Assembly (NCBI GenBank): GCA_041653315.1
Contig: JBAZFO010000004.1
Coordinates: forward strand, 1 to 57,752
DNA length: 57,752 nucleotides
Direction of reading: 5' to 3'
From: Candidatus Micrarchaeia archaeon
GTDB taxonomy: Archaea > Micrarchaeota > Micrarchaeia > Anstonellales > JAHKLY01
Below are positions 488 through 30,784 of the stretch, piece by piece. Each line of letters opens with the position of its first letter. Position 1 is the first letter of the stretch. The position numbers and the translations under genes are program-made. The notes beneath the pieces are model-generated. The model worked only from the letters and a program-made list of their open reading frames with translations, was not told where the DNA came from and ran no database searches.

Positions 488-568
488 TTGCGTTTCTCCT
501 TATGCTATATGGTAACGGGGACCGGAACCCTCTCTGGCAGCCTGACCCCCTTTCAGGGTTTATCGGGG

Positions 569-1819
569 TTAGGCCGCGGCGATCCGGGCGGTGTTGCAGA
601 GACAGAAGCTCTCGGCGTGCCGCAGGGCGATGTCCACCTGAGTGATGATCCGCACCCAGGTCTGATCGAAGGCGAAGGAAGTACCGGCCACGTTGGAGCC
701 CAGGATTTCAAACCCCAGCCACTGGCCGATGAGCATTTCCGCCCAATTGCCGAAGAAAATCTCCGTGCAGTTGGTGGAGCCGCCGGTCACCAGGTTAATG
801 GGGAGTTCCGTGGTGTTGGCAAAGGGATAACCCAGGACCGCCTGCAACTGCGCATCGGTCAAGGGCAGCATGGGGTACTCGCCGCCAGTGTCGCCGGAGA
901 AATACGGGTTACGCAACTTCTTGAGCACCCGCTTGATAGCCGGATGGAAGATGAAACCCAGCTTGCCGCGCAGGGCCTTGTCAACCGACAGTTCATACTC
1001 CATGTCGGGCCAGGGATTGACAAAGTCGGGGACTGCCCCGGAGCCGGTGCCCAGGGTCACGGTATTGATCCCCGAAGTATTGGCCACCCCCAGGGGCTGG
1101 TTCTCGGAACCGATGCCCCGCAGGCCCGCCGTGTCCACTGCCAGGGCCGCGCCCATCGCCAGGTCCTGGCGCACCATGGATTCAGCGTCCGGGCTGGACA
1201 TGCGCACCAGTTCATTGCTGATTTGCACCATGCCGGTGAGTTTCTTGGGCACCATCTTGAGCTGGCCGACTTCCAGCATGGAGGCGATGATTTCCTTGTT
1301 TTCGCCGGTCCAGTAGAAGCTGGCGCCGCCAGTCTGCTTAGCGAAGACCACCGGGGCGCTCACCAGGCCGGAAATGAGCCGGGCACCCATGCGCACACAG
1401 ACAGCCTCTTCCCTGAACATCTCGATAAACTCCGGCATGGCTTGCATGGGGACCAGATAGCCGCCTTCGCTGTCGGTCCCGGTGCTCATGGCTTTGGTGG
1501 TTTTGAAGACCTCCGCCTCCAGGCCGGCACCGAAAGCGTCCCATTCATCCATGGCCTTGCCGGAGCGGATAGCCCGCAATGCCCGGCAGATGGAGAAAGA
1601 CTTTTTCTCCAGGTCCAGCCCGGGCACATCGGCCCACTTACGGGTCTTGCCCTGGGTTTCGATTTCCTTGAGGCGGGTTTCCAGTTCCCCGTATTTGGTC
1701 TGGAGTTCGGGGAACATTTTGAAGGCGTCGAGAATGGTGAGGGGCTTGTCGTCAACACCCTTTACCGTCTCGGCGAGTTTGGCCTGAATATCTGCGAGGA
1801 GTTCCTTGATTTTATCCAT
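569..1819 (-). CDS. Major capsid protein, HK97 fold
   Basis: N-terminal coiled-coil delta-domain-like MDKIKELLADIQAKL, size about 416 aa, follows the prohead protease; AGGAG 6 nt upstream of the ATG at 1819. Confidence 0.85.
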   Translation of the reverse strand: MDKIKELLADIQAKLAETVKGVDDKPLTILDAFKMFPELQTKYGELETRLKEIETQGKTRKWADVPGLDLEKKSFSICRALRAIRSGKAMDEWDAFGAGLEAEVFKTTKAMSTGTDSEGGYLVPMQAMPEFIEMFREEAVCVRMGARLISGLVSAPVVFAKQTGGASFYWTGENKEIIASMLEVGQLKMVPKKLTGMVQISNELVRMSSPDAESMVRQDLAMGAALAVDTAGLRGIGSENQPLGVANTSGINTVTLGTGSGAVPDFVNPWPDMEYELSVDKALRGKLGFIFHPAIKRVLKKLRNPYFSGDTGGEYPMLPLTDAQLQAVLGYPFANTTELPINLVTGGSTNCTEIFFGNWAEMLIGQWLGFEILGSNVAGTSFAFDQTWVRIITQVDIALRHAESFCLCNTARIAAA

Positions 1820-3199: not shown

Positions 3200-3434
3200 C
3201 CGCAGCCCCCTTCTGGTAGGACCGCCGCACCGCCGGCGTCATGTTGGCCCAATCTTTCGGATATCTGATCTTCATGGCCGGTTGCCGCCGCGGGGCCGGA
3301 TTGATGGTCAAGGGCGCCTCGCAGGTATGACAGGGGAAATCAGGAAGACAGAAATCGCTCAACTGATTTTCGAGGCAATGAAAGAAGCTCATTTCCACCC
3401 CATAGCCCTTGCATAAAAATCGGTCAGCGCTCAT
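3192..3434 (-). CDS. Hypothetical Cys-containing small protein (80 aa)
   Basis: ORF tightly packed after the portal gene; start overlaps the portal stop. Confidence 0.45.
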   Translation of the reverse strand: MSADRFLCKGYGVEMSFFHCLENQLSDFCLPDFPCHTCEAPLTINPAPRRQPAMKIRYPKDWANMTPAVRRSYQKGAADV

Positions 3435-6400
3435 TATTCACCCACCACAGGAATGCCCACGCAACGGCAGTTGTGTGAAACAAAACCTTTGGCGATATAG
3501 CTTTCATCTTCTTCTACTGCAAAGTTATAAAGACGGCGCGATTTTTTAAGTCCCCATATCTTGACTTCCGTAATCTCAACCGCTACCTGCTCATAAGTTC
3601 CGGCATGGTTGAGGGTAAGTAGGTTAAAATATTCCCATTCAGGACCGCCCGGATTACCGTAAAAAACGTGCGCTATCTGATGATCTGGATATTGGGTCAA
3701 AATTTCAAGATCGCGGCGACGGTCTTTCTGCTGGTCAGAATGGAAAGCAGCAGAATCGCATTCAATGAACAGTTTGTCTTCCGGACAATAAAAATCTATC
3801 CGGCGACGGCCTATGCAGAATTGTTGCTTAAAAGGGAGCCCCTTCTTTTTAAGAAACCTAGCCATACTTCTTTCCAGGCTTGAGCCTTTCCATGAGGCGC
3901 GCCCCATTGCCTTGAAGGCCCCAGCTTTTAACATCTCAAGCCGAGAACCCCATTTTTGCTCAATCCCCCTCAACACTTTTTTATGAAAATCGCTTCCTGG
4001 GGTTCGGTCAACCGCGGCAAAAAACCCGCCTGGGCCATATTTGCCAAAGGCAACTTCCCGGGCCTTCTTAGTAATTTCATCCGGTTCCCTGACTCCTGCC
4101 GCATATTCTCGATTTAGTTGAGCACTGGTTTTTCGACTTATATTTTCCCGGTGGGCCGGGCTACTCCATTGCCCATCGGTAATCTTCTTGCTCAGACAGG
4201 AACGGTTGCAGTAGCCAAGCCAATAAGGAATTGGGGCGCCGCAATATTTACAGAAAGCGGCCATGACCATGATCTTGTTACCAGGCTGAATATCGTGGGC
4301 ATGTTTCCAGGAACCGTCAGCCATTAAAAAGCGGTGGTTTGGCGTAATGGTTATGCCACGCTTGCTTTTTTCCCGGTCTCCTGTCGGAATTAGCCTAATT
4401 ACTTCGCCCATGTAAGACAGTTGGGGAGAAAGGCGGGTGACTTTTCTAAAGCGGTTTTGGTGAGTCAAAACCATATCCCCGGGGCGAATCTTGCCAATAG
4501 ATTTCCATCCACTATCCGTAAAGATTGGAATTTGGTGATCAACAAAGCAGCTAATCACTTCCCCCGCCGTGCCCTCCGGGTCGCAAGGATACCGGCAGCC
4601 GTTCGGGAAGGTCTGTCCCCGCTTACGCTGCATCCCGGCCTGCGCTGCATGGGTGTCCCGGACCTCGCCGTCCCCCGCCGTGCCCCACTCGATGTTTTCA
4701 ACCTTGAGCTTGTCCATGGCCGCATCACGGGCCGCGGCCATGCACTGGCCCGTTTCGGTCCTGGCGATGGTCAGGCTCCGGGATTCAGTGAAATTGAAGA
4801 CCTCGCGAACGCGCTCCTGCAACTGCCCCGCCGACTCGGTATTTGCCAGCCCCTCAGAGATAGTCTCCCGGAGCTTTTCCCGGGTCAGGTCGTTGATCTG
4901 CACGACCTTGATGAGCTTGTCCTGCAATACCTCCAGGGCGGCGCTGTCCTGAATGACGAACTCGCCAGCATCAACGCCCAGCTCGGCGTAAATATCGCTC
5001 CCGGCTTCCTGTCCGGCGTTCAGGTAGAGCGGCCAGATTTTAGCCCTGAGCTTGCCGTTTGCCTCTGTCAGGTTAAACAGGAGGTCGTCGGGGTCCATCG
5101 GAGTTTCCCGTACAAGGCCCTTGTCGCCCAGCTTGTCGGAGATGAGCTTGAGCTGGAGCTTGCGCTGATCATAGAAATAGCTTTTGATCTTCCCCCGGAA
5201 TTTCTCTTCTATGGCGGTGCGCAGCTTGTTGTACTTCTGCCAGTAGCTCTTGGCGTCGCGCCGGGCCGGGGCCGGGAGGGCCTTGCGGGGTAAGTCCTGG
5301 ACTGACAATACCTGTGCTTTCTGAGGTTCGGCGGCCGGGGCCGGGGCCTGAATTGAACCGGCCGGCTGCAAGTTGAAAGGGAGGTAACCAACATTGCCGC
5401 CGTCGATCTCCGGGAGGCCCATGTCCAGATGCTCGTTAATCACGTTGGCCGGGTAGCCCATAGCGAACAACTTTTGAGCCTGGCCCAGGAGTATGTCCCG
5501 ATCTTCCTGTAGGGCCGGGATGGATTTGCGGTCGAACTCCGGCCAGACCCCCCCCGTGATGGTATGGCAAAGCTGGCCCCATAACCCCATTTCAATCAGG
5601 GTCATGTACGGGTCGAGGGTTGTCTCCCAAAAGCGTTTCCGGGCCACCTTATCCTTGGCGTAGGACCCGGTATCATCCTCGATGCCAAGCTCGCCTTTGG
5701 GGACCTTGTAGATGCCGCCCAATATTTCATCCCGGTTGAGCTTGCGTCCCTCCAGGAAGAGCATGTCAGATTGGGATATACCGGTCTGTTTATAGGTGAT
5801 CCCGCCTTCCAGGAGGGCTATCTCATGGGCCTTATCGACGCCCTGGTGCCGGTCGTTCCATTGAGCCAGGAGACGGTCGAACTCCTCTTGTATGAGGTTT
5901 TCTTTACTCTCCAGGACCCCGCCCGGCTGTGCCCCGTTGACGAAAAAGTTCCGGTTGTATTTGGCGGCGTAGTAATCCTGTTCAAGGCTCAGTCGGGCAA
6001 CCTCAAGAGGGGAGAGCCCCCGGTAATCATCGTAGGGATTGAACCGCTTGATATGGACAACCTCATGGGGCAGTAGCGGGAGCGGCTTCGTCTTACCACG
6101 ATAAATCCAGCCCCGGATCAGGCCGCCCTCGCCGGGAACGTGCTGAAAGCGGCCCGGATGAAAGGTCCAGATTTCCTTGGGAACTTGGGTGGCATTTTCC
6201 CGGTCCAGGATATAGATAGACTCCCCGGTGATCCCCAGGAAGATCAGGGTAGCTTCGATAAGCTGGTACGTGCTCATCATGGGATTCGGAGTTTCAAAGA
6301 GCTTCACCAGGGGGCCGGACTCGACCAGGCGCTTGTCCTTTTTGGTACCGGTGTAGAAGCTCAGGGGCACCCCGGCGATGTTCTGGGAGATGGCATTAAC

Positions 6401-6634
6401 ACAGGCATAGACCCAGACGTGTTGGGCGTAGGGGCGCGTGACGCCGCTCAGGAGGTGCGACCATCCGGTGAAGGGAGTGGCGAAGAACATCTGCTCGATG
6501 GCGCCGAAGTTGGGGGAGGTGAGGGTGGCGGGGTCGGCCTGGCGCACTACCAGGTCACGGCCTGCCCCAGCGCCCCCGTCTCCGAAACCGCTTAATCTCT
6601 GGATGTAGTCGAATCCCCGGCTGATGAGTCCCAT
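3434..6634 (-). CDS. Portal protein fused to a Mu F/SPP1 gp7-like head-morphogenesis domain, interrupted by an intein (1066 aa precursor, 706 aa after splicing)
   Basis: Portal-like N-terminal 450 aa; MuF-like TIARTETGQ...W.TAGDGEVRDTHAAQAG...CRC at the C-terminus; 360-aa Hint insertion before CRC. Confidence 0.85.
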   Translation of the reverse strand: MGLISRGFDYIQRLSGFGDGGAGAGRDLVVRQADPATLTSPNFGAIEQMFFATPFTGWSHLLSGVTRPYAQHVWVYACVNAISQNIAGVPLSFYTGTKKDKRLVESGPLVKLFETPNPMMSTYQLIEATLIFLGITGESIYILDRENATQVPKEIWTFHPGRFQHVPGEGGLIRGWIYRGKTKPLPLLPHEVVHIKRFNPYDDYRGLSPLEVARLSLEQDYYAAKYNRNFFVNGAQPGGVLESKENLIQEEFDRLLAQWNDRHQGVDKAHEIALLEGGITYKQTGISQSDMLFLEGRKLNRDEILGGIYKVPKGELGIEDDTGSYAKDKVARKRFWETTLDPYMTLIEMGLWGQLCHTITGGVWPEFDRKSIPALQEDRDILLGQAQKLFAMGYPANVINEHLDMGLPEIDGGNVGYLPFNLQPAGSIQAPAPAAEPQKAQVLSVQDLPRKALPAPARRDAKSYWQKYNKLRTAIEEKFRGKIKSYFYDQRKLQLKLISDKLGDKGLVRETPMDPDDLLFNLTEANGKLRAKIWPLYLNAGQEAGSDIYAELGVDAGEFVIQDSAALEVLQDKLIKVVQINDLTREKLRETISEGLANTESAGQLQERVREVFNFTESRSLTIARTETGQCMAAARDAAMDKLKVENIEWGTAGDGEVRDTHAAQAGMQRKRGQTFPNGCRYPCDPEGTAGEVISCFVDHQIPIFTDSGWKSIGKIRPGDMVLTHQNRFRKVTRLSPQLSYMGEVIRLIPTGDREKSKRGITITPNHRFLMADGSWKHAHDIQPGNKIMVMAAFCKYCGAPIPYWLGYCNRSCLSKKITDGQWSSPAHRENISRKTSAQLNREYAAGVREPDEITKKAREVAFGKYGPGGFFAAVDRTPGSDFHKKVLRGIEQKWGSRLEMLKAGAFKAMGRASWKGSSLERSMARFLKKKGLPFKQQFCIGRRRIDFYCPEDKLFIECDSAAFHSDQQKDRRRDLEILTQYPDHQIAHVFYGNPGGPEWEYFNLLTLNHAGTYEQVAVEITEVKIWGLKKSRRLYNFAVEEDESYIAKGFVSHNCRCVGIPVVGE
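3470..4549 (-). mobile_element. Intein (360 aa) with DUF559/Vsr-like endonuclease domain
   Basis: Starts at Cys (tgc at 4549-4547, CFVDHQIPIF), TxxH block (TPNHRF), ends ...GFVSHN followed by +1 Cys (CRC); internal RRRIDFYCPEDKLFIECDSAAFH motif; more AT-rich than the flanks. Confidence 0.85.
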
Positions 6635-6819
6635 ATAGGAAAAACTATCGGGGAAAAAATCATATTATGTCACAGGGCATTTGTGATTTTGGGGATTTTT
6701 ATTGATGTAGGGTAATGGATTGATTATTCAGGCGAACTCATTTTGTGGAGAGGGTATTTTCCGGGCCAGGACGGCCCTTGGGATTTTTTGGCATGATATT
6801 TGACGTGGGGGTTTTGAGC

Positions 6820-6854
6820 AAAAAAAAGAGCCGGAGCCCCGAAGGGCCCCGGCT
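6820..6854 (-). terminator. Intrinsic terminator after the DndC-like gene
   Basis: Minus strand AGCCGGgGCCCttcgGGGCtCCGGCT hairpin followed by a run of 8 T. Confidence 0.75.
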
Positions 6855-6860
6855 GAAAGT

Positions 6861-6900
6861 GTTACGTCATGTGGCGTCATGTTACGTCATGTCGTGACAC
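6861..6900. repeat. Three and a half tandem 10-bp units (GTTACGTCAT/GTGGCGTCAT/GTTACGTCAT/GTCGTGACAC)
   Basis: Exact 10-bp phasing read directly; straddles the stop codon of the DndC-like gene, just upstream of the terminator. Confidence 0.8.
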
Positions 6901-7904
6901 TGCGCCACACCGAACAACATGGGTTGGGTGTTGTCGGGGATATTGTGAATCTCCCGATCTATCTGCCAATGATTTTTTATAAGCGACTCTTCTGCCGGAG
7001 TGATCAGGTCCCAGCCGGTGAGTTGTTCCACCTGCTTTAATTTGGCATAGAGCTTTTTTCTGATCTCCACCAGGAAGGGGCCGCAACCGACCGTGCCGTT
7101 TCGTCTGATCCGGGAGCGGTAGGCCTTGGTGTTGGCCGTGTTGACCAGGATTTCCTTGAATTCCTTCAAGGCGTGGTAGCGTTCGGCGTCCTGGGTATGA
7201 AAGCCGATCAATTCGAGCTGAGTGGATTTCTGCAGCGGGCAGGCCCAACAGCCATACCGGGCGTTGCCGACACAGACGCCGGCCTTTTCGCCATAGACGC
7301 ACTCGTCCGAAGAGTATTTATAGACGTTGATCAGGTCGGTATGGTCGCCCCAGGGGCAGGGCTCTGTCATGAGGTATTCCCAGACATCATGAGCGGTCCA
7401 GTCCAGGATAGGGGCGTAATGGTTCGGCTTGTAATTCTTGGCCTTGTATATCCTGGCCCGCAGGGCGCTCTCAGAGCTTCTGACCCCGACAAAGACGGTG
7501 TACTCCTGGCCAGCGGTAACCTGCTTGATGTAATTTTTGATCGGGTCTATTTTGAGCTTCCCCGTGCACCATCTAAAACCCATGTGAGCGGCCGGGTAAC
7601 CCATGCCCAGGACGGATACCCAAAAGGAGCCGCTTAATTCAGGGTGGACCGTGACCAGTTTGGCATTGATGCCGACCTGATCGATATAAGCCTGGATGCG
7701 CCCTTTGGTATGCTCGACATATTCCTGGAAATAGGGAATTTCCATGAGGGTGTCCGACGTGACTATATGCAGCGCCTTGCCGGTCCCCGCAATGGCCGTA
7801 ATGGCCCCTTGCAGAACAACCGAGCTGTCTTTCCCGCCAGAAAATGAGACGATGTTGACCTCCCGCAGTTGCTGGCGAATTTCATTGATCATTGTACCGC
7901 TCAT
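6882..7904 (-). CDS. PAPS-reductase/ATP-pyrophosphatase family protein, DndC-like (340 aa)
   Basis: PP-loop SFSGGKDS near the N-terminus; C-terminal Cys cluster CVGNARYGCWACP, resembling the DndC RFGCWxC motif. Confidence 0.7.
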   Translation of the reverse strand: MSGTMINEIRQQLREVNIVSFSGGKDSSVVLQGAITAIAGTGKALHIVTSDTLMEIPYFQEYVEHTKGRIQAYIDQVGINAKLVTVHPELSGSFWVSVLGMGYPAAHMGFRWCTGKLKIDPIKNYIKQVTAGQEYTVFVGVRSSESALRARIYKAKNYKPNHYAPILDWTAHDVWEYLMTEPCPWGDHTDLINVYKYSSDECVYGEKAGVCVGNARYGCWACPLQKSTQLELIGFHTQDAERYHALKEFKEILVNTANTKAYRSRIRRNGTVGCGPFLVEIRKKLYAKLKQVEQLTGWDLITPAEESLIKNHWQIDREIHNIPDNTQPMLFGVAQCHDMT

Positions 7905-7905
7905 T

Positions 7906-8097
7906 TCACTGCACCGCCCTTGCCGCCTCTAAAAACGCCTCAGCAGCTTGCGAGTCCACGACTTCAAAGACAATCTCATCTCCGGAGCCGTCTTCAAACT
8001 TGGCTATGCGACGGCCCAGGTCATCCGTCCAGGCGCAGATAAAACGCCAATTTTGGTCAAAGGTGATCGTGATGATTTGCTGCCCATTATTTCCCAT
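7906..8097 (-). CDS. Hypothetical protein (63 aa)
   Basis: ORF packed between neighbours on the same strand. Confidence 0.45.
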   Translation of the reverse strand: MGNNGQQIITITFDQNWRFICAWTDDLGRRIAKFEDGSGDEIVFEVVDSQAAEAFLEAARAVQ

Positions 8098-15397: not shown

Positions 15398-15472
15398 TGG
15401 TAGTCCTGCCTGGACTCGAACCAGGGTCTGACCCTTATAAGGGGTCGGCTCTAACCATTGAGCTACAGGACC
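15398..15472 (-). tRNA. tRNA-Ile, anticodon UAU, CCA encoded
   Basis: Hand-folded cloverleaf: GGTCCTG/TA/GCTC-AATGGTTA-GAGC/C/GACCC-CTTATAA-GGGTC/AGAC/CCTGG-TTCGAGT-CCAGG/CAGGACT/A/CCA. Confidence 0.85.
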
Positions 15473-20056: not shown

Positions 20057-20540
20057 TGAGTCTCTCCAGATAAAAGCTATGGGTTGATTTGAAGTGTCCG
20101 CCTTGAATACTCTCCCTGACCTGAGCCTTAAAACTCATTACCGCATCCATACGAGTTACACAATTGACGGCCAGTTTCGGCTCAAAAATCGTATTGAGCC
20201 AGAGCCACCATTTGGGGGCCAAGTGCCAGGATAATTTATCAGCAAAGTAGAGTTTGCTTTTTGCTTGACCGCTATGCGTACAATGTCCCGCCAAAAGGTC
20301 ATATGCCCATTCCCCAAATAATTTTCCCCCAATCCTGGCTCCGGCCCGCCAATGAGTTTTCTTCTCTTCATAGGAGTTCAGGTAGTTGAGTCCGAAGTGG
20401 CCCACATCATGCAGAAATATACAGATCGTTTCTCTCCATGAAGGGAGCTTGCCGTAAAGCCGCTGCCAAGCTCGAATCACCATGAGGCTGTGCACTGGAG
20501 AATGGCAACCGCAGATAATTGAAATGGTGCCCTGTGTCAT
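20040..20540 (-). CDS. Hypothetical protein with HD-like motif (166 aa)
   Basis: H...FLHDVGHFG resembles an HD phosphohydrolase signature; weak. Confidence 0.35.
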   Translation of the reverse strand: MTQGTISIICGCHSPVHSLMVIRAWQRLYGKLPSWRETICIFLHDVGHFGLNYLNSYEEKKTHWRAGARIGGKLFGEWAYDLLAGHCTHSGQAKSKLYFADKLSWHLAPKWWLWLNTIFEPKLAVNCVTRMDAVMSFKAQVRESIQGGHFKSTHSFYLERLNGGRK

Positions 20541-22186
20541 GACACCCCCTTAAGCGCCTGAATGTAATTCTCTTCCATCGTCCAAACCTCCTCCGCGGTC
20601 CGGCGCCGCTTCTGATTGATGTTGTCATAAACCACCCCTTCAAGCTCAGGGATAAACGGATAGTGCATCTTGACGGCCTTGGTTTGGCCGTAGCGGTAGG
20701 ACCGGCGCTCAAGCTGATAACGCTGCTCTTCCGAATCATTGAACCCGGAAATGATATTCGAGCCGCAGGCCTGGAAATTTAGGCCGTAGCCCAGGAGTTG
20801 CGCTTTGGTGATGAGGCAATCACTCTCGCCCTTGCGGAACCGTTCGATGATAGGCAACCGGGCCTTTTTCGGGAGGCTCCCGGTAATCATCTCCACCAGG
20901 TAGCCATGATCCTTGAGCAGGTCGAAGAGTATCCGGCTTTCCTCATCGAAGACGGTCCAGATTAGGACCTTGAGGCCGTCTTTCATATCCTTAAGGGCTA
21001 AATCAGCGCAGAACTGAGGCTTATGGGAAGCTACCGGAATGATCTTGCGGCCCGGGCCTGCCTCCCCCTCATAAAGAAAACCCTTGGCCATTTCGGAGTA
21101 TTTGATGCGCTGCACCATCTCCAACTTTTCCCAACCGCCAAATAATGTCGCCTGGCCGGAAGCGTCAGGTAGCCGGTGAATGAGGTCTAACTGCTCCTGG
21201 GTAATCTTGAGGCGATATTCTGTGGTGACAGGATCCGGCAGGTCCTTGAGATGATCCTGGAAGCCGTACCGGGCCGGGTTGCGCATGTAGATGGACCAGC
21301 CGGAGAGAAAACGGTAGAAGGCGCTCTTGGCGTTATCCTTCACCTTCCATTCGCCGTCTTTTGTGCGACAGAAGAACGTCCAGATGATTTCGCCCTCGTT
21401 GCGCAGCTTTTCCAGGAAAGACCCCTGAGAGGCGTACTCCATTGTCTCATTGGGCGCCGGCGTGGCGGTGAAGGTGTATTTGTATTCGATGCCCCGGCAA
21501 CTCTTGATAAGCGCCCACTTGATGGTGCCCCCGCCCGACTTGAGAAGGGAGGCCTCATCCAGCAAGGCCCCGGCTAGCCATTGACATTCCGAGATGGTTT
21601 CCGCCTCACCCTTCCGGGGGATAAACTTTTCGGGGTTGATGATGGCGATTCCGGGTCCTGGGCCGGTACACCAGGTTCTGAGGGCTTGCTGTGATTCCAA
21701 TTGGGTAATTTCCGGATACTCAGGAGGAAAATAATACGGGTTCTGTAAATCAGTAACCCCGTAAAATTTTATGGTTTCGTCTATGGTTTGCTGAATCAGG
21801 TTTAGGGGAACGATCAGAAGTACCCGACCCTGCGTCTTGTGCATCACTTGGCGGGCCAATTCCAGCATCATAAGCGCCTTGCCCAATCCCGTGTCACACC
21901 ACACAGCAAATCTCTTCGCAGGCAGTGAAAGTGCCCGGACAATCCATTCCTGATAATCAAAAAGGTTGGGGTTGAAGGGAAGCCACCCTCTTTCTTGGTA
22001 AACATCCTCCAGGCCGAAGATATGGGCGAACCGGGAAGGGGTTTTTAGCTGATAACTGTCGGTCTCCCAGGCATAGGACAGGTTGCACTCCGGGAGCTGC
22101 TTCGATTTGAGAAAGACTTGGTAATCCTCCAGGCTGAACGGTGCCTTGAAATCTACCTGTATCGTGTCGCCTTCTACGCTTATCAC
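20537..22186 (-). CDS. SNF2/DEAD-like superfamily 2 helicase (549 aa)
   Basis: Motif I DTGLGKA, motif II LLDEAS, C-terminal helicase lobe LITKAQLLGYGLNFQ; GTG start with TAAGGAGG. Confidence 0.8.
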   Translation of the reverse strand: MISVEGDTIQVDFKAPFSLEDYQVFLKSKQLPECNLSYAWETDSYQLKTPSRFAHIFGLEDVYQERGWLPFNPNLFDYQEWIVRALSLPAKRFAVWCDTGLGKALMMLELARQVMHKTQGRVLLIVPLNLIQQTIDETIKFYGVTDLQNPYYFPPEYPEITQLESQQALRTWCTGPGPGIAIINPEKFIPRKGEAETISECQWLAGALLDEASLLKSGGGTIKWALIKSCRGIEYKYTFTATPAPNETMEYASQGSFLEKLRNEGEIIWTFFCRTKDGEWKVKDNAKSAFYRFLSGWSIYMRNPARYGFQDHLKDLPDPVTTEYRLKITQEQLDLIHRLPDASGQATLFGGWEKLEMVQRIKYSEMAKGFLYEGEAGPGRKIIPVASHKPQFCADLALKDMKDGLKVLIWTVFDEESRILFDLLKDHGYLVEMITGSLPKKARLPIIERFRKGESDCLITKAQLLGYGLNFQACGSNIISGFNDSEEQRYQLERRSYRYGQTKAVKMHYPFIPELEGVVYDNINQKRRRTAEEVWTMEENYIQALKGVS

Positions 22187-22199
22187 TGCATCCTCCTTA

Positions 22200-22870
22200 C
22201 CCCCGGTGCTGTTGCCTTACGCAATCCAGTTACCAGGGGCTATATGTGAGCATTGGCGCTCATCAAAAGGGGTAGTCTCCGCCAGAAGTCCTACCCCCAA
22301 AAATCAGAGCCATACTTGTTAAGGTTCTCGCCACTGTCGCCCTTCCCGGCTGCCCTCCCGTCCTTGACGCTTTCGGTACTCCGCCGGCCTTCCCTTCACC
22401 CCTGGGGTTAATAAGCTGGCCATGCCTGGGCTTTCCCTACGTCGCGCCGCCTACGGGTCGCCTCATTTCCGGGTCTTGACTTCAACACGCTTAACGGGGC
22501 CGTGCTCCCCTAAATTGTCTCGGTTGTTCAGGTTCATCGCCTTGGCGTCCGCCGCCAGATCACTTTCGGTTGTGTCTCCTACCTGGAGAGGCAGATTCGA
22601 TCTACCCACCAGGAGGGGCCTCGATTCGGCTGGCGAACTCTGCGCCCCATTTGCAATTTCTTGGGCTCGCTACGCCCCAGGGTTGCTATCCCCTCTCACC
22701 CCGCCTTTGAGCCATATTTCAGGCTTCGGTTTTCGTGGGGTTAGGCTGGCCTGGTTCGGCTGTTCCGGGTTTTTTCGCTGGTGGCCCATTCCCTGCCACC
22801 GCCCGCCCTGTATTTTTCGGTTTTTTGTGGGTGTTTGGTAACCTCCTGGTATGTTTGATTAGCTTTATAT
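22200..22870 (-). other. Long ORF-free, purine-rich (minus strand) leader; candidate structured RNA
   Basis: About 670 nt at coding-like GC with stops in all minus frames; many GC stems with GAAA-type loops (CCGAAAG twice, GGAAAT, CGAAAA); lies between the promoter at about 22.88 kb and the helicase start. Confidence 0.35.
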
Positions 22871-22877
22871 GGTCATA

Positions 22878-22927
22878 ACCTTACCATGCGGTAAGATCGT
22901 GTCAAGCAAAAAATAACCTTGCGGTAA
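22878..22927 (-). promoter_or_regulatory. Candidate early-left promoter flanked and overlapped by two repressor operators
   Basis: Minus strand TTGACA (22905-22900), 16 nt, TAAGGT (22883-22878); palindromes TTACCATGCGGTAA (22881-22894) and TAACCTTGCGGTAA (22914-22927). Confidence 0.45.
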
Positions 22928-23102
22928 GAAAAAATCTGATTTTTTTGTTTTTCCGGGGATTGCAGAAATTCGATAGAGATTAAAGCGTGTTACGAATCAA
23001 AAAATAAATGGAAAAGACAGAATGATTTTTTTAAAGATAAATAGGAGATATTCCGAATATATGGGCGGGTCTTATATCAAGGCATCGAGGGAGGATTTGG
23101 TC

Positions 23103-23417
23103 ATGAAATTATCGGAGAAGCTGATTGCCCCTTTGATCTATGTCTTTTTGGGCTTTTTAATGGTGCCTGGCCAACAATCGGTAATAATCTATAAATCACC
23201 GCAGGCATTCCGGGAGGCCGTAGCTATTTATGATGCAAACAATAAGCGGGTGACACCTGCATACATAGCCAGGACAGCCGCTTTAGTACCAGGAAATACA
23301 GAAGCCGATTTACTTGAATGTTCCTGGAGCTATGGCTTAGATAAAGTCATGATCACTAAGGGTAAATTTGAGGGTGTAATTGGGTGGGTGCCCATAGAGT
23401 GGTATCATTCAAAATAA
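23103..23417 (+). CDS. Plus-strand moron: membrane-anchored/secreted small protein (104 aa)
   Basis: GGGAGGA RBS; N-terminal hydrophobic LIAPLIYVFLGFLMV; AT-rich; convergent with the terminase ATPase gene. Confidence 0.55.
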   Translation: MKLSEKLIAPLIYVFLGFLMVPGQQSVIIYKSPQAFREAVAIYDANNKRVTPAYIARTAALVPGNTEADLLECSWSYGLDKVMITKGKFEGVIGWVPIEWYHSK

Positions 23418-23428
23418 GATGAGGCGAG

Positions 23429-24469
23429 CTACAGCCCCGCCGCCCCCTCGCCGCCCCCGCCTTCCGGGTCCTCATCATCCCGTTTGGGCGGGTCCTGGAC
23501 GTGCAAAAGCCAGTCGAACTCTCCGTAGATCAAGCCCTCCTGGCTCGGCTTGTTGCACAACATCTCACTATTCCAGGTATCCACTGAGACCTGGCGGCGT
23601 TTGGTGATAGCGTCCTCGATTCCGTAGAAGCCGTCTGCGGCCCGCGCCTTGCCCTGGCAATCCGGCCAAAGTTCGCACAAGGCGCACTCCCGATCCGGGG
23701 TACACCGTTCGATCACGTCAAAAATACACCACTTGTAAACCCGGTAGCCCCTTTCATCGGCTTCGGTGATTACCTGGTTCATGAGCCCGTAAGCCTTGTG
23801 CATGGTGGAGAAGATTTGCAGACTGGACTTGATGCCCCGTTTCGTTTGGGGGACCAGGAGGGCGGCCTGGTAGATCGACGGGTCCATTTCGTCAACCTCG
23901 TCGAGCTTCATTTTCTGAGGGTGCGCGCCCCGGACGCTCCGGGATGAGGCGGTGAGGATTTGGATGTTGGACTGATTGTTGAGCTTGGAGCCCTGGGCTA
24001 GCATTTCCCCGTTAAGCAGGTATTGAAAGTCCTCCGTAACCAGCCCCCAGCCGTCCCCCTCGCCGGTCAGGTGCTCATAGACCCTTTTGCTTTGCTCCTG
24101 TGAGCCCCCTAAGATTTTCGTGGAGCAGCCGCCCTTGAAGGCGCTGTCAAGCCAGGTGCACAGTCCGGCCAGGAGGGTTTTGCCGCCGCCCCGGTTCGAC
24201 CAACAGATGGAGTTCTGGACGCGCTCAAAGAAGGTGTCGCAGATGTAGTCGGCGGGGGAGTTATGGTGCTCACAGACGTGAGCCCGGGGGATGGTGAGGG
24301 GGTTGCCGGATTTATCGGGGTAGGCCCGGGCGATGAAGCCTAAGAGGTCTTTGTCGTCTCGGAAGCCATGCTCCCGGTAATATTCGATTTCCTTTTGGAG
24401 TTCGCTCTCTTCCTGCCCCAGCAGATTGTTGCTCTCGGCCTTTTGAATGCGGCCCCGTAGATTAGCCAC
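23429..24469 (-). CDS. terL: Large terminase, ATPase domain only (346 aa)
   Basis: Walker A NRGGGKT, Walker B KLDEVDE, coupling motif LTASSRSVRG; ends in a low-complexity tail right where a nuclease domain normally begins. Confidence 0.8.
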   Translation of the reverse strand: MANLRGRIQKAESNNLLGQEESELQKEIEYYREHGFRDDKDLLGFIARAYPDKSGNPLTIPRAHVCEHHNSPADYICDTFFERVQNSICWSNRGGGKTLLAGLCTWLDSAFKGGCSTKILGGSQEQSKRVYEHLTGEGDGWGLVTEDFQYLLNGEMLAQGSKLNNQSNIQILTASSRSVRGAHPQKMKLDEVDEMDPSIYQAALLVPQTKRGIKSSLQIFSTMHKAYGLMNQVITEADERGYRVYKWCIFDVIERCTPDRECALCELWPDCQGKARAADGFYGIEDAITKRRQVSVDTWNSEMLCNKPSQEGLIYGEFDWLLHVQDPPKRDDEDPEGGGGEGAAGL

Positions 24470-24872
24470 ACTGGAGCTTTTCTTCTATGGCGGCCATGCG
24501 AGCCTCAAGCTCGGTAAGCTCTAGTCCCTTCCGGTAAAGCTCCATCATGCTCGACAGCGCCTGCCCCTCGCCGGGGGTGATCCGCCCCCTGGATACTGCG
24601 GAGAGAATTGCGGCCATAGCCTTGGGGATGTCCGCCACCGTTTCGACCTTGGGGAGCTTTATCGACAGGGGGAGTTCCCTCCGCAGCGGGATGATCCGTT
24701 CAAGACAGAGCTTGAGGGCTACGGGGTCCCCTTTCTTGGCCTTGTTTATGGCCTTGCGGGTCAGGGCCTCAGCTTCCCCGTCCAGAAGAACCATCGCCGC
24801 CTTGGTAGTCTTACTGAGGGTGCCTTTCGGCTTGCCGCTGGGGTTGCCTGACTGTCCTTTTTTAAAGGCCAT
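24462..24872 (-). CDS. terS: Small terminase candidate (DUF5681-like N-terminus)
   Basis: MAFKKGQSGNPSGKPKG N-terminal motif, helical C-terminus, directly upstream of the terL ATPase with an 8-nt overlap. Confidence 0.55.
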   Translation of the reverse strand: MAFKKGQSGNPSGKPKGTLSKTTKAAMVLLDGEAEALTRKAINKAKKGDPVALKLCLERIIPLRRELPLSIKLPKVETVADIPKAMAAILSAVSRGRITPGEGQALSSMMELYRKGLELTELEARMAAIEEKLQCG

Positions 24873-24890
24873 TGTTTTTTCCTTGATTAA

Positions 24891-25430
24891 TCAATACGAT
24901 GCGTTTAGCCCCACCCACCACGTTAGAAAATACCGCAGTCCGTCAAGCCCGTGGTGGGGTCCCGTGCCCGGCACATGTTCCCGGTACAGGTTGAACTCCC
25001 CCAGAAATCGCCGGTAGCAATACTCACCGCAAGCGCACTTCCCGACCTTGGCGAAGGTGAGCCCGGACTCCCCTTTGGTTATGGCCGCCGCCTTGAGCCA
25101 CTGCTTGACGAGTTCATGGCCTGGCTCAACCCGTCCCGACTGCCCGACTATATCCACCCCGAAGACTTGGGAGTAGGTGCGCAACGCTTCCGGCTTGGAG
25201 GGATCGCCTGCGCCGCCGGTTAGCTGGCCATAGCCCCGGCCCTGGTGAATCTTGAGCAAAATCTTCCCATTTTCTTCGTTCGTGCGGTATGCCTGGTAGT
25301 GGGCATACAGGACCTGGACCTTTTCGTGGTCGGCGGAGGGTTGAAGCCAGAGTGCACAATTATTTTTCCAACCGAAGTCCACGCCCAGGTAAATCGGATT
25401 GTCCGGGCTGTAGTAGGGGTCTATCAGCAT
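24891..25430 (-). CDS. Stand-alone large-terminase nuclease (RNase H-like) domain protein
   Basis: IYLGVDFG, GAGDPSKPE and HHGLDGLRYF match the three acidic-residue blocks of terminase C-terminal nuclease domains. Confidence 0.65.
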   Translation of the reverse strand: MLIDPYYSPDNPIYLGVDFGWKNNCALWLQPSADHEKVQVLYAHYQAYRTNEENGKILLKIHQGRGYGQLTGGAGDPSKPEALRTYSQVFGVDIVGQSGRVEPGHELVKQWLKAAAITKGESGLTFAKVGKCACGEYCYRRFLGEFNLYREHVPGTGPHHGLDGLRYFLTWWVGLNASY

Positions 25431-25434
25431 TCCC

Positions 25435-25719
25435 TCATCCCCACAGCACAACTCCCCTGTTATTTTCAATGCTGGCCTGAACTGCCGGGGCACCCTTTGC
25501 CGATTCTCCTACCGCCTGCCCTTCCCTGTCTGTCACCCCCTGGCCGTCGCTTACAAAGGCTCTCATGCTGTCGTTCATCTCAAGGGCGGTGCTCAGGGTT
25601 CGGATGACCCCGCAGGCCGCCTGCTTGAGCCACCGCTTTTCTGTTTCGGTGAGGGTACGGCCCAGAATCAAGATATGCTCCGGGCCGCCGTCGATGGACA
25701 GGTGGATGGTGGTGTTCAT
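25435..25719 (-). CDS. Hypothetical protein (94 aa)
   Basis: ORF in operon. Confidence 0.45.
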   Translation of the reverse strand: MNTTIHLSIDGGPEHILILGRTLTETEKRWLKQAACGVIRTLSTALEMNDSMRAFVSDGQGVTDREGQAVGESAKGAPAVQASIENNRGVVLWG

Positions 25720-29589: not shown

Positions 29590-30017
29590 CCACCGGACTC
29601 CCATTTCTCTGTGCATGAGCAAAGCACCGGGGGGTTAATCCGCTTGGTTATCAAATCGCCCTCCTCTGTCTTACCCATAGGCCAGTCCATCGCTGTCCTA
29701 ACCACTCCACTACCCTTACACTTCGGACATTCTGGGTTGGCCCACTTGTCCGGGTGAAAGCGGCGGTCGTGAATCTCATTGGCCTTGCTATCGCCGTTCT
29801 TCTCGCCAATTTCCATCGACTTCGCCCACATAAAGGCCGGCAGGTTCCGGGGCCAGGATTCCAGTTTTTTAACTTCGGCCAAGAGGTCTTTGATGTGATT
29901 CTCTGGAATATCCCGGACCTCTTCACACCATTGGGTAATAGTTTCATCCCGTGGAGGCTTGCGCTCAAAGTAGAGGCTCAGCTCATAGATTGCGCTTTTA
30001 AATGTTCCTGGACCCAT
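29586..30017 (-). CDS. Hypothetical replication-module protein with CxxC...CxC cluster (143 aa)
   Basis: ECPKCKGSG...CSC; downstream of the replisome organizer. Confidence 0.45.
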   Translation of the reverse strand: MGPGTFKSAIYELSLYFERKPPRDETITQWCEEVRDIPENHIKDLLAEVKKLESWPRNLPAFMWAKSMEIGEKNGDSKANEIHDRRFHPDKWANPECPKCKGSGVVRTAMDWPMGKTEEGDLITKRINPPVLCSCTEKWESGG

Positions 30018-30784
30018 TGCGGTTGACCCCCTTCGGGTTGTGCTACATCAAAATCAAATGGCTCCCTTTCCCATTCAGCCGCCTTAAGCCAGCGCTCAAA
30101 ATGCTTAAATTCAGGGTAGAAGATGCCTAACGAATCGGCTTTTTGTTTTTCGGCAATTTGGCGCTCAATTATCGAGATGACGTCTTTGGGGATGGTGGGC
30201 TTAGCCTTCTTGAACTGGGCAAAAGCGTTTTTTTTACTACCATGCTGGTTTTTGGGGTAGGCCAAATAGATTGCTTCGAAATCTTGAGGGTATGCTCCGT
30301 TCCCTCCGGTGGGAGGGGACATATCTTTTTTATTATCTTGATTTAAACTTAACTTAAACTTAAGGCCGGAGTCCTCCTGGACTTCTCCATCATTACTCCG
30401 GGAGTCCTCCGGGAGTCCTCCGGGAGTTTCACAGAGTTTATCTGGAGGCGATGGGAGTTTTGAAGGTGATTCCCTGTCTACCCTAAGTCTTTGATTATCC
30501 TTAAATTTTGGATATTGGATAAACCACTCTTTCCCTATTTGATAGCGTAAAATCAGTTCTTTGGATTCGGCATCTTTGAAGAATTTTGCTACTTTTTCGG
30601 CGGTGATATGCTCAAGAAGAGGCACCACGATTGCCCTAAAAACTTTAGGGCTTCCGCTAATCCTCCCCTCGATATCAAGGTGCGATATGGCCCAGGTAAA
30701 AAGGAGGCGGTGAGTATCATTCTCAAGGCTCGCCACGGCCTCATTAAGGCTAATTTTCTTATGGAGCATCCTACCGTCGGCCAT
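29978..30784 (-). CDS. Replisome organizer / replication initiator (DnaD- or O-like, 268 aa)
   Basis: N-terminal winged-helix-like domain, central linker encoded by iterons, C-terminal DnaD-like YPQDFEAIYLAYPK... Confidence 0.6.
   Translation of the reverse strand: MADGRMLHKKISLNEAVASLENDTHRLLFTWAISHLDIEGRISGSPKVFRAIVVPLLEHITAEKVAKFFKDAESKELILRYQIGKEWFIQYPKFKDNQRLRVDRESPSKLPSPPDKLCETPGGLPEDSRSNDGEVQEDSGLKFKLSLNQDNKKDMSPPTGGNGAYPQDFEAIYLAYPKNQHGSKKNAFAQFKKAKPTIPKDVISIIERQIAEKQKADSLGIFYPEFKHFERWLKAAEWEREPFDFDVAQPEGGQPQWVQEHLKAQSMS
30321..30430. promoter_or_regulatory. Candidate replication origin inside the organizer gene
   Basis: AT-rich tract with AACTTA repeats (30321-30364), degenerate iteron CCGGAGTCCTCC (30366-30377), then 3 x 11-bp CTCCGGGAGTC (30396-30428). 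Confidence 0.55.

Follow-up and report, generated by a model that had tools for sequence, protein, structure and literature searches.

To our knowledge, very few classes of large, ornate RNA have been described in bacteria and their phages, and each of them has led to new biochemistry. The large RNA classes include RNase P, group II introns, OLE, GOLLD, ROOL and HEARO/omega RNA. Here we describe an RNA encoded on the minus strand of a 57,752-nucleotide stretch of DNA (contig JBAZFO010000004.1 of assembly GCA_041653315.1; hereafter, the window), where it lies between a putative repressor-controlled promoter and the gene for an SNF2-like helicase, the first gene of a phage operon. It is a new large structured phage RNA, outside Rfam. 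In size, complexity and host it is similar to the large ornate RNAs of phages, and in placement to the nut sites of phage lambda and put sites of phage HK022, and every model-based test places it outside both groups.

ROOL, GOLLD and OLE RNAs are 500 to 800 nucleotides (nt) long, are borne by phages or prophages, combine many helices with pseudoknots and conserved unpaired nucleotides, and were discovered ahead of their functions, mainly in uncultured or environmental sequences. The RNA described here is like them in these respects: it exceeds 500 nt, combines a pseudoknot with 18 or more helices, and is located in phage DNA. However, ROOL, GOLLD and OLE RNAs are the products of free-standing genes, whereas this RNA forms the 5' leader of an operon, close to the promoter. 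Also, ROOL and GOLLD genes typically lie beside tRNA genes, and this RNA does not.

The nut and put sites, as this RNA would be, are the first element expressed from a phage promoter under repressor control, and a long operon with terminator-like hairpins comes after them. The 3' module of the RNA further recalls nut in that a short spacer separates a motif containing GCUCU from a hairpin whose apex is conserved. However, the element is approximately 10 to 20 times larger than nut or put, its apex is UUCUGGCGGA (unrelated in some members) instead of the GAAAA pentaloop of boxB, its boxA-like motif is predicted to be partly paired, and the two-hairpin architecture of put is not recognizable in it. 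EAR is likewise a structured RNA with pseudoknots that is found in a long operon and is proposed to act on the elongation complex, but it is approximately 120 nt long, is located inside the eps operon of Bacillales and is represented in Rfam by a model that has no match here. The pRNA of phage phi29 is a structured phage RNA paired with a packaging ATPase that lacks a fused nuclease, and a gene for such an ATPase lies directly upstream of the RNA described here in most lineages. In contrast to this RNA, pRNA is 120 to 174 nt long, with a defined three-way junction and intermolecular loop pairing, its Rfam model is unmatched here, and it is not encoded next to gene 16; at the present locus the link is one of synteny only, and the nuclease is kept as a separate open reading frame (ORF).

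The RNA is thus as large as ROOL, with a pseudoknot supported by covariation, and its fixed promoter-proximal place, with an operon of 20 kb or more after it and an unusual split terminase beside it, provides a handle on its function. It could be a very large new element that controls transcription elongation, or a phage RNA with a new structural or catalytic role.

Conservation and covariation

Two features define the region.

22187-22870 (−): whole leader, from the predicted transcription start to the last base before the helicase GTG codon; it has nhmmer homologs, stop codons in its frames and no Rfam match
22422-22841 (+): spurious antisense ORF of 139 amino acids (aa), the sole long ORF of the region and an artefact of composition

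Searches with nhmmer revealed at least 15 distinct homologs in phages or prophages, and the leader very probably encodes a genuine structured RNA family. The element is approximately 630 to 690 nt long, of which a core of approximately 560 nt (22808-22247, minus strand) is conserved throughout the family. Nine distinct full-length sequences, which share 54 to 80% pairwise identity, carry most of the evidence. The first three-way alignment already exposed the exchange of a GGUGGC/GCCACC stem for GAGACC/GGUCUC around an unchanged loop, and RNAalifold reported double changes in 14, then 24, pairs. Automatic detection of helices from covarying columns of the full MAFFT alignment was defeated by register errors, and was replaced by per-segment folding, a hand-curated helix table and a test of one uncurated domain. 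When the nine sequences were folded singly, segment by segment, a common architecture emerged.

In the curated set, 18 helices comprising 82 base pairs, including an H-type pseudoknot, were 97.9% canonical over the nine sequences, and 45 pairs had double compensatory changes; it weighs against these figures that the helix table was made by hand, which inflates the percentage paired and leans towards structure. Among 1000 column shuffles of this set, the mean was 81.4% canonical (maximum 85.1%) with 23.8 double-change pairs (maximum 31), and none of the shuffles scored as high as the real set. Because the table was hand-made, the domain from P5 to P9 was also counted in an uncurated MAFFT alignment. 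Its 30 pairs were 87.0% paired, versus 75.6% in shuffles, with 14 double-change pairs versus 7.9 and a covariation score of 0.277 versus 0.139; none of 500 shuffles scored as high, and slid partners were 26 to 48% paired. Six further sequences, which were obtained by way of the upstream ATPase gene and held out from the curation, had canonical pairs at 200 of 206 positions, with new compensatory variants, and retained P3, P6, P8, P10, P11, the pseudoknot and the distal 3' helix. Throughout, stems change in a compensatory manner, and loops and junctions stay constant. Since G·U cells exceed A·C cells by 20 to 2 in the curated set, the folded molecule corresponds to the helicase-sense strand. 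The folding energy of the single leader sequence is ordinary (minimum free energy (MFE) z = −0.96), and it is comparison among homologs, not thermodynamics, that supports a structure.

A first-pass annotation had proposed that this leader is a large structured RNA like no known family, acting either as a long cis-regulatory leader or as a stand-alone phage ncRNA, and had named findings that would speak against the proposal, among them a lack of conservation among homologs, a lack of covariation, and homologs that reveal a frameshift-corrected protein gene. Instead, homologs exist, compensatory changes are abundant in the RNAalifold, curated, uncurated and held-out analyses, and no reading frame is kept among the homologs, whose indels of 1 to 40 nt do not occur in multiples of three. 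Its description of the composition was also accurate. Every minus-strand frame of 22870-22187 contains 8 to 12 stop codons of mixed types, and on this ground and that of the indels a recoded, frameshifted or decayed gene was rejected. The GC content (0.58 to 0.60) is near that of coding DNA, slightly above the adjoining genes (0.50 to 0.56), and the sense strand is 61% G+A, as had been remarked, and 14% T. With so little T in the sense strand, its complement is poor in A and has few stop codons, which explains why the plus-strand ORF, already judged noncoding-like, is open. The only database relative of this ORF is P0121, which is antisense to the homologous RNA in locus L132 (homologous loci are given L numbers). 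P0121 (L132, 5001-5522), annotated in a JGI metagenome as a hypothetical protein of 173 aa, is almost certainly a spurious call on the A-poor antisense strand.

Searches of databases and collection of homologs

The suspicion that no known family would match was confirmed by three scans with Rfam 15 (4227 families). At the gathering threshold, the leader had no match and the only hit in the whole window was a tRNA at 15401-15472; with E ≤ 10, region 21900-23200 gave one chance match, which lies outside the element; and the loci of nine homologs (74.5 kb) gave zero matches at the gathering threshold. The models covered include those for GOLLD, ROOL, OLE, HEARO, raiA, RNase P, tmRNA, 6S RNA, group I and II introns, T-boxes, riboswitches, EAR and pRNA. 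Nothing similar was detected in GenBank phages, by using either the window or a 3.9-kb concatenate of six variants as the query, or in PLSDB plasmids, and no description of the element was found in the literature. A survey of structured RNAs across IMG/VR reported only candidates of 29 to 151 nt (PMC10690425), so the full-length element cannot be among them; its list could hold at most fragments of the element.

The homologs were collected by several routes. The exact helicase protein as an anchor retrieved only L002, an identical contig. Helicase-anchored scans of metagenomes, viruses and genomes yielded 120 loci, and nhmmer found the RNA in only two of them, L004 and L038, both of which have additional ORFs between the RNA and the helicase gene (two ORFs in the L038 lineage). 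DNA patterns derived from conserved blocks found L129, L130, L131, L139, L165, L183, L186, L201, L211, L288, L299, L300 and L311, and the translated antisense ORF, used as a protein query, led through P0121 to one further locus, L132. A further anchor was the terminase ATPase encoded upstream, in the form of its homologs: all six loci with enough flanking sequence (L324 to L328 and L331) carry the RNA, in more divergent copies.

Three of these six loci are long contigs of NCBI metagenome-assembled genomes (MAGs). L325 is labeled Thermodesulfobacteriota and L326 Desulfobacteraceae, and other homologs of the short ATPase occur in Deltaproteobacteria and Syntrophales MAGs. Thus, the family lives in temperate phages or prophages, probably of Desulfobacterota-type anaerobes, a host range suggested by MAG labels only. 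The collection certainly under-samples the family, and the approximately 100 clusters of the upstream ATPase in public data should suffice to gather hundreds of sequences for a rigorous structure.

Architecture of the RNA

The elements of the RNA are as follows, from 5' to 3'; the basis for each is given last where applicable.

22809-22870 (−): CA-rich 5' tract, apparently unstructured; sequence
22847-22842 (−): Shine-Dalgarno-like AGGAGG with no start codon after it; sequence
22807-22801 / 22750-22744 (−): P1, GGC-G-GGC / GCC-A-GCC, which encloses P2; covariation
22800-22795 / 22785-22780 (−): P2 hairpin, GGUGGC / GCCACC, loop AGGGAAUGG; covariation
22775-22751 (−): A-rich joining strand within the P1-P2 domain (22744-22807)
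22698-22741 (−): lineage-specific inserted hairpin, ACCCC...GGGGU, with inner stem AGCC / GGCU; alignment
22694-22691 / 22682-22679 (−): P3, AGGG / CCCU, loop GAUAGCAA; independent folds agree
22677-22674 / 22666-22663 (−): P4, GGGC / GCCC, in tandem with P3 (22663-22694); independent folds agree
22649-22659 (−): conserved unpaired junction AAAUUGCAAAU between P4 and P5; near-invariant columns in all alignments
22648-22644 / 22619-22615 (−): P5, GGGGC / GCCCC, in domain P5-P7 (22581-22648); nine MFE folds
22637-22634 / 22628-22625 (−): P5a, UUCG / CGAA, loop CCAGC; nine MFE folds
22613-22609 / 22586-22582 (−): P6, CCUGG / CCAGG; nine MFE folds
22604-22600 / 22596-22592 (−): P7, UAGAU / AUCUG; nine MFE folds
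22576-22572 / 22563-22558 (−): P8, GACAC / GUG-A-UC, loop AACCGAAA; 22543-22576 with P9
22557-22553 / 22547-22543 (−): P9, UGGCG / CGCCA
22510-22507 / 22499-22496 (−): P11, GGGG / CCCC, in the H-type pseudoknot (22486-22510); covariation
22504-22501 / 22489-22486 (−): pseudoknot pairing of CACG in the P11 loop with downstream CGUG; covariation
22325-22485 (−): 3' central region with conserved blocks CCGGAAAUGAG, GCGACGUAG and GGAAGGCCGG and several short hairpins; alignments
22247-22324 (−): 3' module, consisting of CCUUAAC (22324-22318), the universal UGGCUCUG (22312-22305) and a long hairpin
22312-22309 / 22257-22254 (−): closing helix of the 3' module, UGGC / GCCA; covariation
22297-22291 / 22275-22269 (−): distal helix of the 3' module, GGGGUAG / CUACCCC; covariation
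22287-22278 (−): conserved apex UUCUGGCGGA of the 3' module, kept in most lineages
22187-22246 (−): window-specific linker to the helicase gene, absent from homologs, which have GGAGG and a start codon 10 to 20 nt or less after the 3' module
22239-22200 (−): linker hairpin CCCCUGGU...ACCGGGGG, present in the MFE fold
22198-22192 (−): ribosome-binding site (RBS) AAGGAGG

In homologs, the sequence equivalent to the 5' AGGAGG is AGGAGG, AGGGGG or AGGAGA, and it is never followed by ATG, GTG or TTG. P1 exchanges C-G for G-C and G-C for A-U, and the P2 stem is elsewhere GAGACC/GGUCUC, GGGGGC/GCCCCC or GGCC/GGCC. P3 occurs as ACGG/CCGU, AGGA/UCCU, AGGC/GCCU, AGAG/CUCU, GGUC/GACC or CUGG/CCAG around a constant loop, and P8 as GAUGG/CCAUC, GGCGG/CCGCC, GGUGG/CCACC, GACGG/CCGUC, AGCAG/CUGCU or GUGGGC/GCCCAC. 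The pseudoknot pairing covaries as CACGG/CCGUG, CCGGC/GCCGG, UCGG/CCGA and CCUGG/CCAGG, and in the held-out sequences as CGUGA/UCACG, CCCUA/UAGGG and UAGGG/CCCUG. In the 3' module, the closing helix is represented by UUUGGC/GCCAAG, CAAGGC/GC-CUUG and GAAGGC/GCCUUU, and the distal helix covaries at six of its nine positions. The motif GGCUCUG(A/U) is invariant except in a repeat found in L129, and is located 3 to 8 nt before the long 3' hairpin. A profile of the 3' module finds a single copy in the window by using nhmmer.

The RNA is modular. The inserted hairpin at 22741-22698 is confined to the lineages of the window, L132, L038 and L129, where its inner stem covaries (AGCC/GGCU, AACC/GGUU, GUCC/GGGC); P10 is absent from the window's own lineage; and P7 is replaced in L328. 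The junction AAAUUGCAAAU has as its core UUGCAA (22656-22651), a palindrome that is reduced to UGCA in two lineages. Self-pairing of this palindrome between two RNA molecules could occur, although this is only an idea. Kissing of the UGGCG apex with CGCCA or with the CCAG loop was rejected, as it is not conserved across lineages.

Three hairpins that had been picked out by eye from the window, GGTGGC-N9-GCCACC (22800-22780), GGGG-N7-CCCC (22510-22496) and GGGGTAG-N15-CTACCCC (22297-22269), are now supported by covariation in homologs. A fourth, TGAGC-N6-GCTCA, is present, but competes with the better-supported closing helix of the 3' module and was set aside in its favor. The quoted motifs of helices capped by GAAA-type loops also are present, but CCGAAAG at 22569-22563 falls in the loop of P8 and does not form a helix with a GNRA cap.

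Promoter and downstream operon

The predicted promoter and operators and the first gene of the operon are located as follows.

22878-22905 (−): promoter, with −35 element TTGACA (22905-22900), 16-nt spacer and −10 element TAAGGT (22883-22878); sequence
22895-22880 (−): operator CTTACCGCATGGTAAG of a direct-repeat family, which overlaps the spacer and the −10 element; sequence
22928-22913 (−): operator CTTACCGCAAGGTTAT of the same family; sequence
20537-22186 (−): opening gene of the operon, which starts with GTG and encodes an SF2 (SNF2-like) helicase of 549 aa; Pfam

The element is presumably transcribed from this promoter, which would start transcription near 22870. The promoter and its two flanking operators had been noticed in the first-pass annotation, and the operators are copies of the palindrome CTTACCGCA(T/A)GGT within 22880-22928 (minus strand). 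The consensus scanner did not flag the promoter because its −10 element is weak. TTGACA occurs at the equivalent place in L038, L129, L131, L311 and L288, with different, lineage-specific palindromes at the operator site. In L165, L186, L300, L325 to L328 and L331, the promoter instead has the form GGCA(C/T)-N5-(T/G)TGCAT with 10-nt GG-to-GC spacing, which fits the −24/−12 spacing of sigma-54 promoters. Candidate sites of this type are as follows.

L165, 4395-4430: sigma-54-type promoter
L300, ~2125-2100: sigma-54-type promoter
L325, ~4895-4930: sigma-54-type promoter
L326, ~4850-4885: sigma-54-type promoter
L327, ~4295-4330: sigma-54-type promoter
L328, ~4265-4300: sigma-54-type promoter
L331, ~4290-4320: sigma-54-type promoter

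These lineages also have TGCGTAAC/GTTACGCA repeats 100 to 250 nt upstream that look like enhancer sites. Thus, a promoter is found directly upstream of the RNA in all members, and its apparent type, sigma-70 with operators or sigma-54, is not conserved in the family.

At the other end, an RBS and a start codon follow the 3' module by 10 to 60 nt in all members; in the window this RBS is the one at which the leader had been said to end. The first gene after it differs. The window's helicase matches Helicase_C (2e-10), ResIII (9e-7) and SNF2-rel (1e-4) in Pfam, has 827 homologs and has an N-terminus that fits the family consensus. However, the RNA is directly before a helicase gene only in the window's own lineage; elsewhere the first ORFs are unrelated, encoding proteins of 112, 83 or 99 aa or other small products. 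The coupling to the helicase that had been supposed is therefore incidental, as the scarcity of the RNA among helicase-anchored loci also indicates.

The operon of the window extends for at least 20 kb on the minus strand and encodes the helicase, an endonuclease VII-like protein, a methylase, a PDDEXK exonuclease and an SbcC-like protein, then the portal and head genes. Phage genes around the RNA include those for portal, major head protein, integrase and a CI-like repressor. No sense-strand terminator was flagged by the scanner between the RNA and the first ORF in the window. Terminator-like hairpins do occur between same-strand genes of the operon, at 18147-18128 and 11386-11363 (minus strand), the latter a strong one with a 10-bp stem, 8 of its pairs G-C, and a run of T. 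Similar hairpins are found downstream of the RNA in L165 (7516-7536) and L129 (~6007-5980). In L129, a second copy of the 3' module is located between the first and second ORFs (6426-6278, minus strand), and comprises CCUUUAAU, GGCCCUG, a hairpin with the UUCUGGCGGA apex and GAGCGCCAAGCUC. The L129 hairpin at ~6007-5980 (minus strand) is an intrinsic terminator, AGCCGCC-TTCG-GGCGGCT followed by a run of T, that lies after the second ORF and was missed by the scanner.

The upstream split terminase

Upstream of the RNA are the following genes and hairpin.

23429-24469 (−): 346-aa ATPase half of a terminase whose large subunit is split; conserved upstream neighbor
23441-23423 (−): terminator-like hairpin after the ATPase gene
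24462-24872 (−): DUF5681 ORF between the nuclease and ATPase halves
24891-25493 (−): nuclease half of the terminase, a 200-aa ORF, further upstream

The ATPase gene is directly upstream of the RNA in nine of ten lineages, and its products share 54 to 68% aa identity in MAFFT alignments and 50 to 92% in local tblastn alignments. The short ATPase is a P-loop protein of 297 to 346 aa that ends at the motif EFDxxLHV, the exact point at which the nuclease domain starts in full-length relatives (approximately 495 aa, PF17289), and approximately 100 database clusters share this short form. The terminase large subunit of the window is both split and permuted (23429-25493, minus strand). A profile search of PDB with the ATPase gave nothing useful. 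The spacer from the ATPase stop codon to the RNA varies from 120 to 1300 nt and contains the promoter. A group I or II intron in the terminase gene was considered and rejected: the nuclease half is upstream of the ATPase half, both are complete ORFs, the spacer has the length just given and no intron model matches.

A possible role in transcription of the operon

The constant partner of the RNA is its promoter-proximal position and not any downstream gene, which favors a function in cis at the level of the operon. Transcription of 22870-22187 (minus strand) from the operator-controlled promoter would produce an RNA of approximately 680 nt, whose 560-nt core would fold into a structure of at least 18 helices, with one H-type pseudoknot and with junctions that are unpaired and conserved. 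The RNA would be the first product of a tightly regulated promoter and would run into the RBS of the first ORF. The folded leader might then modify the transcribing polymerase or recruit a factor to it, as do lambda nut, HK022 put and EAR, so that transcription would pass the internal terminators. The likely effector would be the 3' module, with its GGCUCUG, spacer and long hairpin with a conserved apex. GGCUCUG(A/U) resembles the boxA core, GCUCUU(U)A, and, like the boxA of a nut site, has a hairpin after it. The terminator-like hairpins within the downstream same-strand arrays fit antitermination, as does the repetition of the 3' module between genes of L129, shortly before an intrinsic terminator. 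A new structured leader RNA with an antitermination-type action on its operon in cis is our best explanation as a whole, although we hold it with a little less than even confidence; the cis mechanism taken by itself is best regarded as tentative, at a slightly lower confidence.

Several observations weigh against this explanation. The element, at 560 to 690 nt, is approximately 10 times as large as any known antitermination RNA (nut is approximately 30 nt, put 70 nt and EAR 120 nt). The internal terminator-like hairpins are no commoner than in shuffled sequence. Some members (L300, L328, L326 and L331) lack the CUUUAAC motif and the UUCUGGCGGA apex or have other sequences in their place. A boxA is bound as a single strand, but the folds predict pairing of GGC and UC within GGCUCUG, and the pairs on either side covary. 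The downstream ORFs include no recognized N-like or Q-like protein, although no search aimed at N was made among them. The structure itself is only partly worked out in 22485-22325, where the proposed CCGGC/GCCGG pairing and small hairpins are weakly tested. Finally, the conserved unpaired nucleotides and the exchange of domains fit an autonomous ribonucleoprotein (RNP) or RNA-only assembly at least as well.

Alternative explanations

The last point leads to a stable, trans-acting large RNA that is cut from the operon transcript or persists as its long-lived 5' part, and that forms an RNA-only assembly or an RNP. We consider this possible but rather unlikely in itself, and a trans-acting RNA of the ROOL or GOLLD kind is nearly as likely as the cis leader. 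ROOL and GOLLD are phage-borne and form homo-oligomers (PMC12286853). The RNA matches them in size and ornateness, has many invariant unpaired nucleotides, including UUGCAA (22656-22651), and moves as a module independently of downstream genes and of promoter type; and the 5' AGGAGG, which no start codon follows, could stabilize the 5' end, as do the Shine-Dalgarno-like STAB-SD elements. However, its 3' end has no terminator or recognizable processing site and is followed within 10 to 60 nt by an ORF with a strong RBS, the nearest tRNA gene is 6.7 kb away, unlike the tRNA neighborhoods of ROOL and GOLLD, and the models for ROOL, GOLLD, OLE and pRNA are unmatched. A more speculative version holds that the RNA belongs to the packaging motor of the nuclease-less terminase ATPase, as phi29 pRNA does with gp16; if true, RNA-assisted DNA packaging would be far wider than the phi29 group. 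The strict linkage to the split terminase ATPase (6 of 6 fetched loci and 9 of 10 lineages) suggests such a role, but the synteny may be no more than an inherited genome backbone, and the L038 lineage has the RNA without an upstream ATPase gene. It seems to us unlikely that the RNA, instead of being a regulatory leader, is a stable machine component that assembles with itself or with protein, whether as a third RNA-only assembly of phages, after ROOL and GOLLD, or as a giant adaptor, similar to pRNA, for a split and permuted terminase.

The position of the RNA immediately before the RBS in all members could also be that of a leader that works as a sensor, either like a riboswitch or by binding a protein, and that governs the start of translation or the stability of the mRNA for the first ORF or ORFs and not transcription elongation. 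GAGC in the 3' module can pair with upstream or downstream GCUC, so mutually exclusive helices are possible, and the repeated module in L129 precedes the second ORF. However, in all members the RBS is located outside the folded 3' module, on its 3' side, and predicted folds do not sequester it, which, with the absence of a 3'-end sense terminator according to the scanner in the window, leaves no expression platform of the riboswitch or T-box kind; the RNA is several times larger than any known riboswitch; and the first ORFs are unrelated between lineages, which makes gene-specific autoregulation unlikely. This alternative is about as improbable as a third assembly or adaptor. Much less probable still is a primer or R-loop RNA associated with an origin, like ColE1 RNA II, in which the transcript would hybridize to its template and prime DNA synthesis. 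The RNA is 61% purine and 14% U, has nearly the length of RNA II and in the window adjoins the helicase and other DNA-metabolism genes. Yet GC skew has no inflection at the site, so a replication origin at the leader was rejected; the replication initiator gene is 7 kb away (29978-30784); the downstream genes of other lineages are mostly not replication genes; and the conservation of the pseudoknot and junctions points to an RNA that is free and folded and not to a hybrid. No sigma-70 promoter-like site was flagged on either strand of 21900-23500, which is a further point against a primer and leaves nothing that points to a regulatory antisense RNA. The least probable explanation, and one that we regard as scarcely credible, is that the region is not an RNA at all, but a neutral spacer, a pseudogene in decay or a site that functions as DNA (cos, pac or protein-binding). 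Folding energy no better than that of shuffled sequences is what such DNA would give, and the neighboring terminase genes are the usual place of cos and pac sites, but compensatory changes in at least 45 base pairs, a covarying pseudoknot, indels that are not codon-sized with no conserved frame, and an excess of G·U over A·C that fits one strand of single-stranded RNA and not duplex DNA, all argue against it.

Other genes of the window and of homologous loci

ARAGORN identified one tRNA in the window, a phage-borne tRNA-Ile with anticodon UAU (15398-15472, minus strand), which is encoded within the operon that the RNA opens. Further along the same strand, an ORF of 1066 aa (3434-6634) combines portal and Mu F-like domains with an intein splicing domain that has a DUF559/restriction-endonuclease-like insert.

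On the plus strand, an ORF of 131 aa (23022-23417) is divergent from the RNA promoter and convergent on the ATPase gene, and has no match in Pfam or PHROG. The same ORF is found in L131 despite a different operator and promoter, and so is probably not the cognate repressor. In L038, the place of the ATPase gene is taken by a different ORF of 131 aa (523-918, minus strand) that looks by eye like a transposase fragment, which suggests a rearrangement in that lineage.

Downstream of the RNA, most lineages have several small ORFs and then an AAA ATPase (PF00004) of 470 to 550 aa. L326 has a HicAB toxin-antitoxin pair in this region (6758-7206), and L325 has a reverse transcriptase of the group II intron type (7486-7969) with RVT_N, RVT_1, GIIM and HNH domains.

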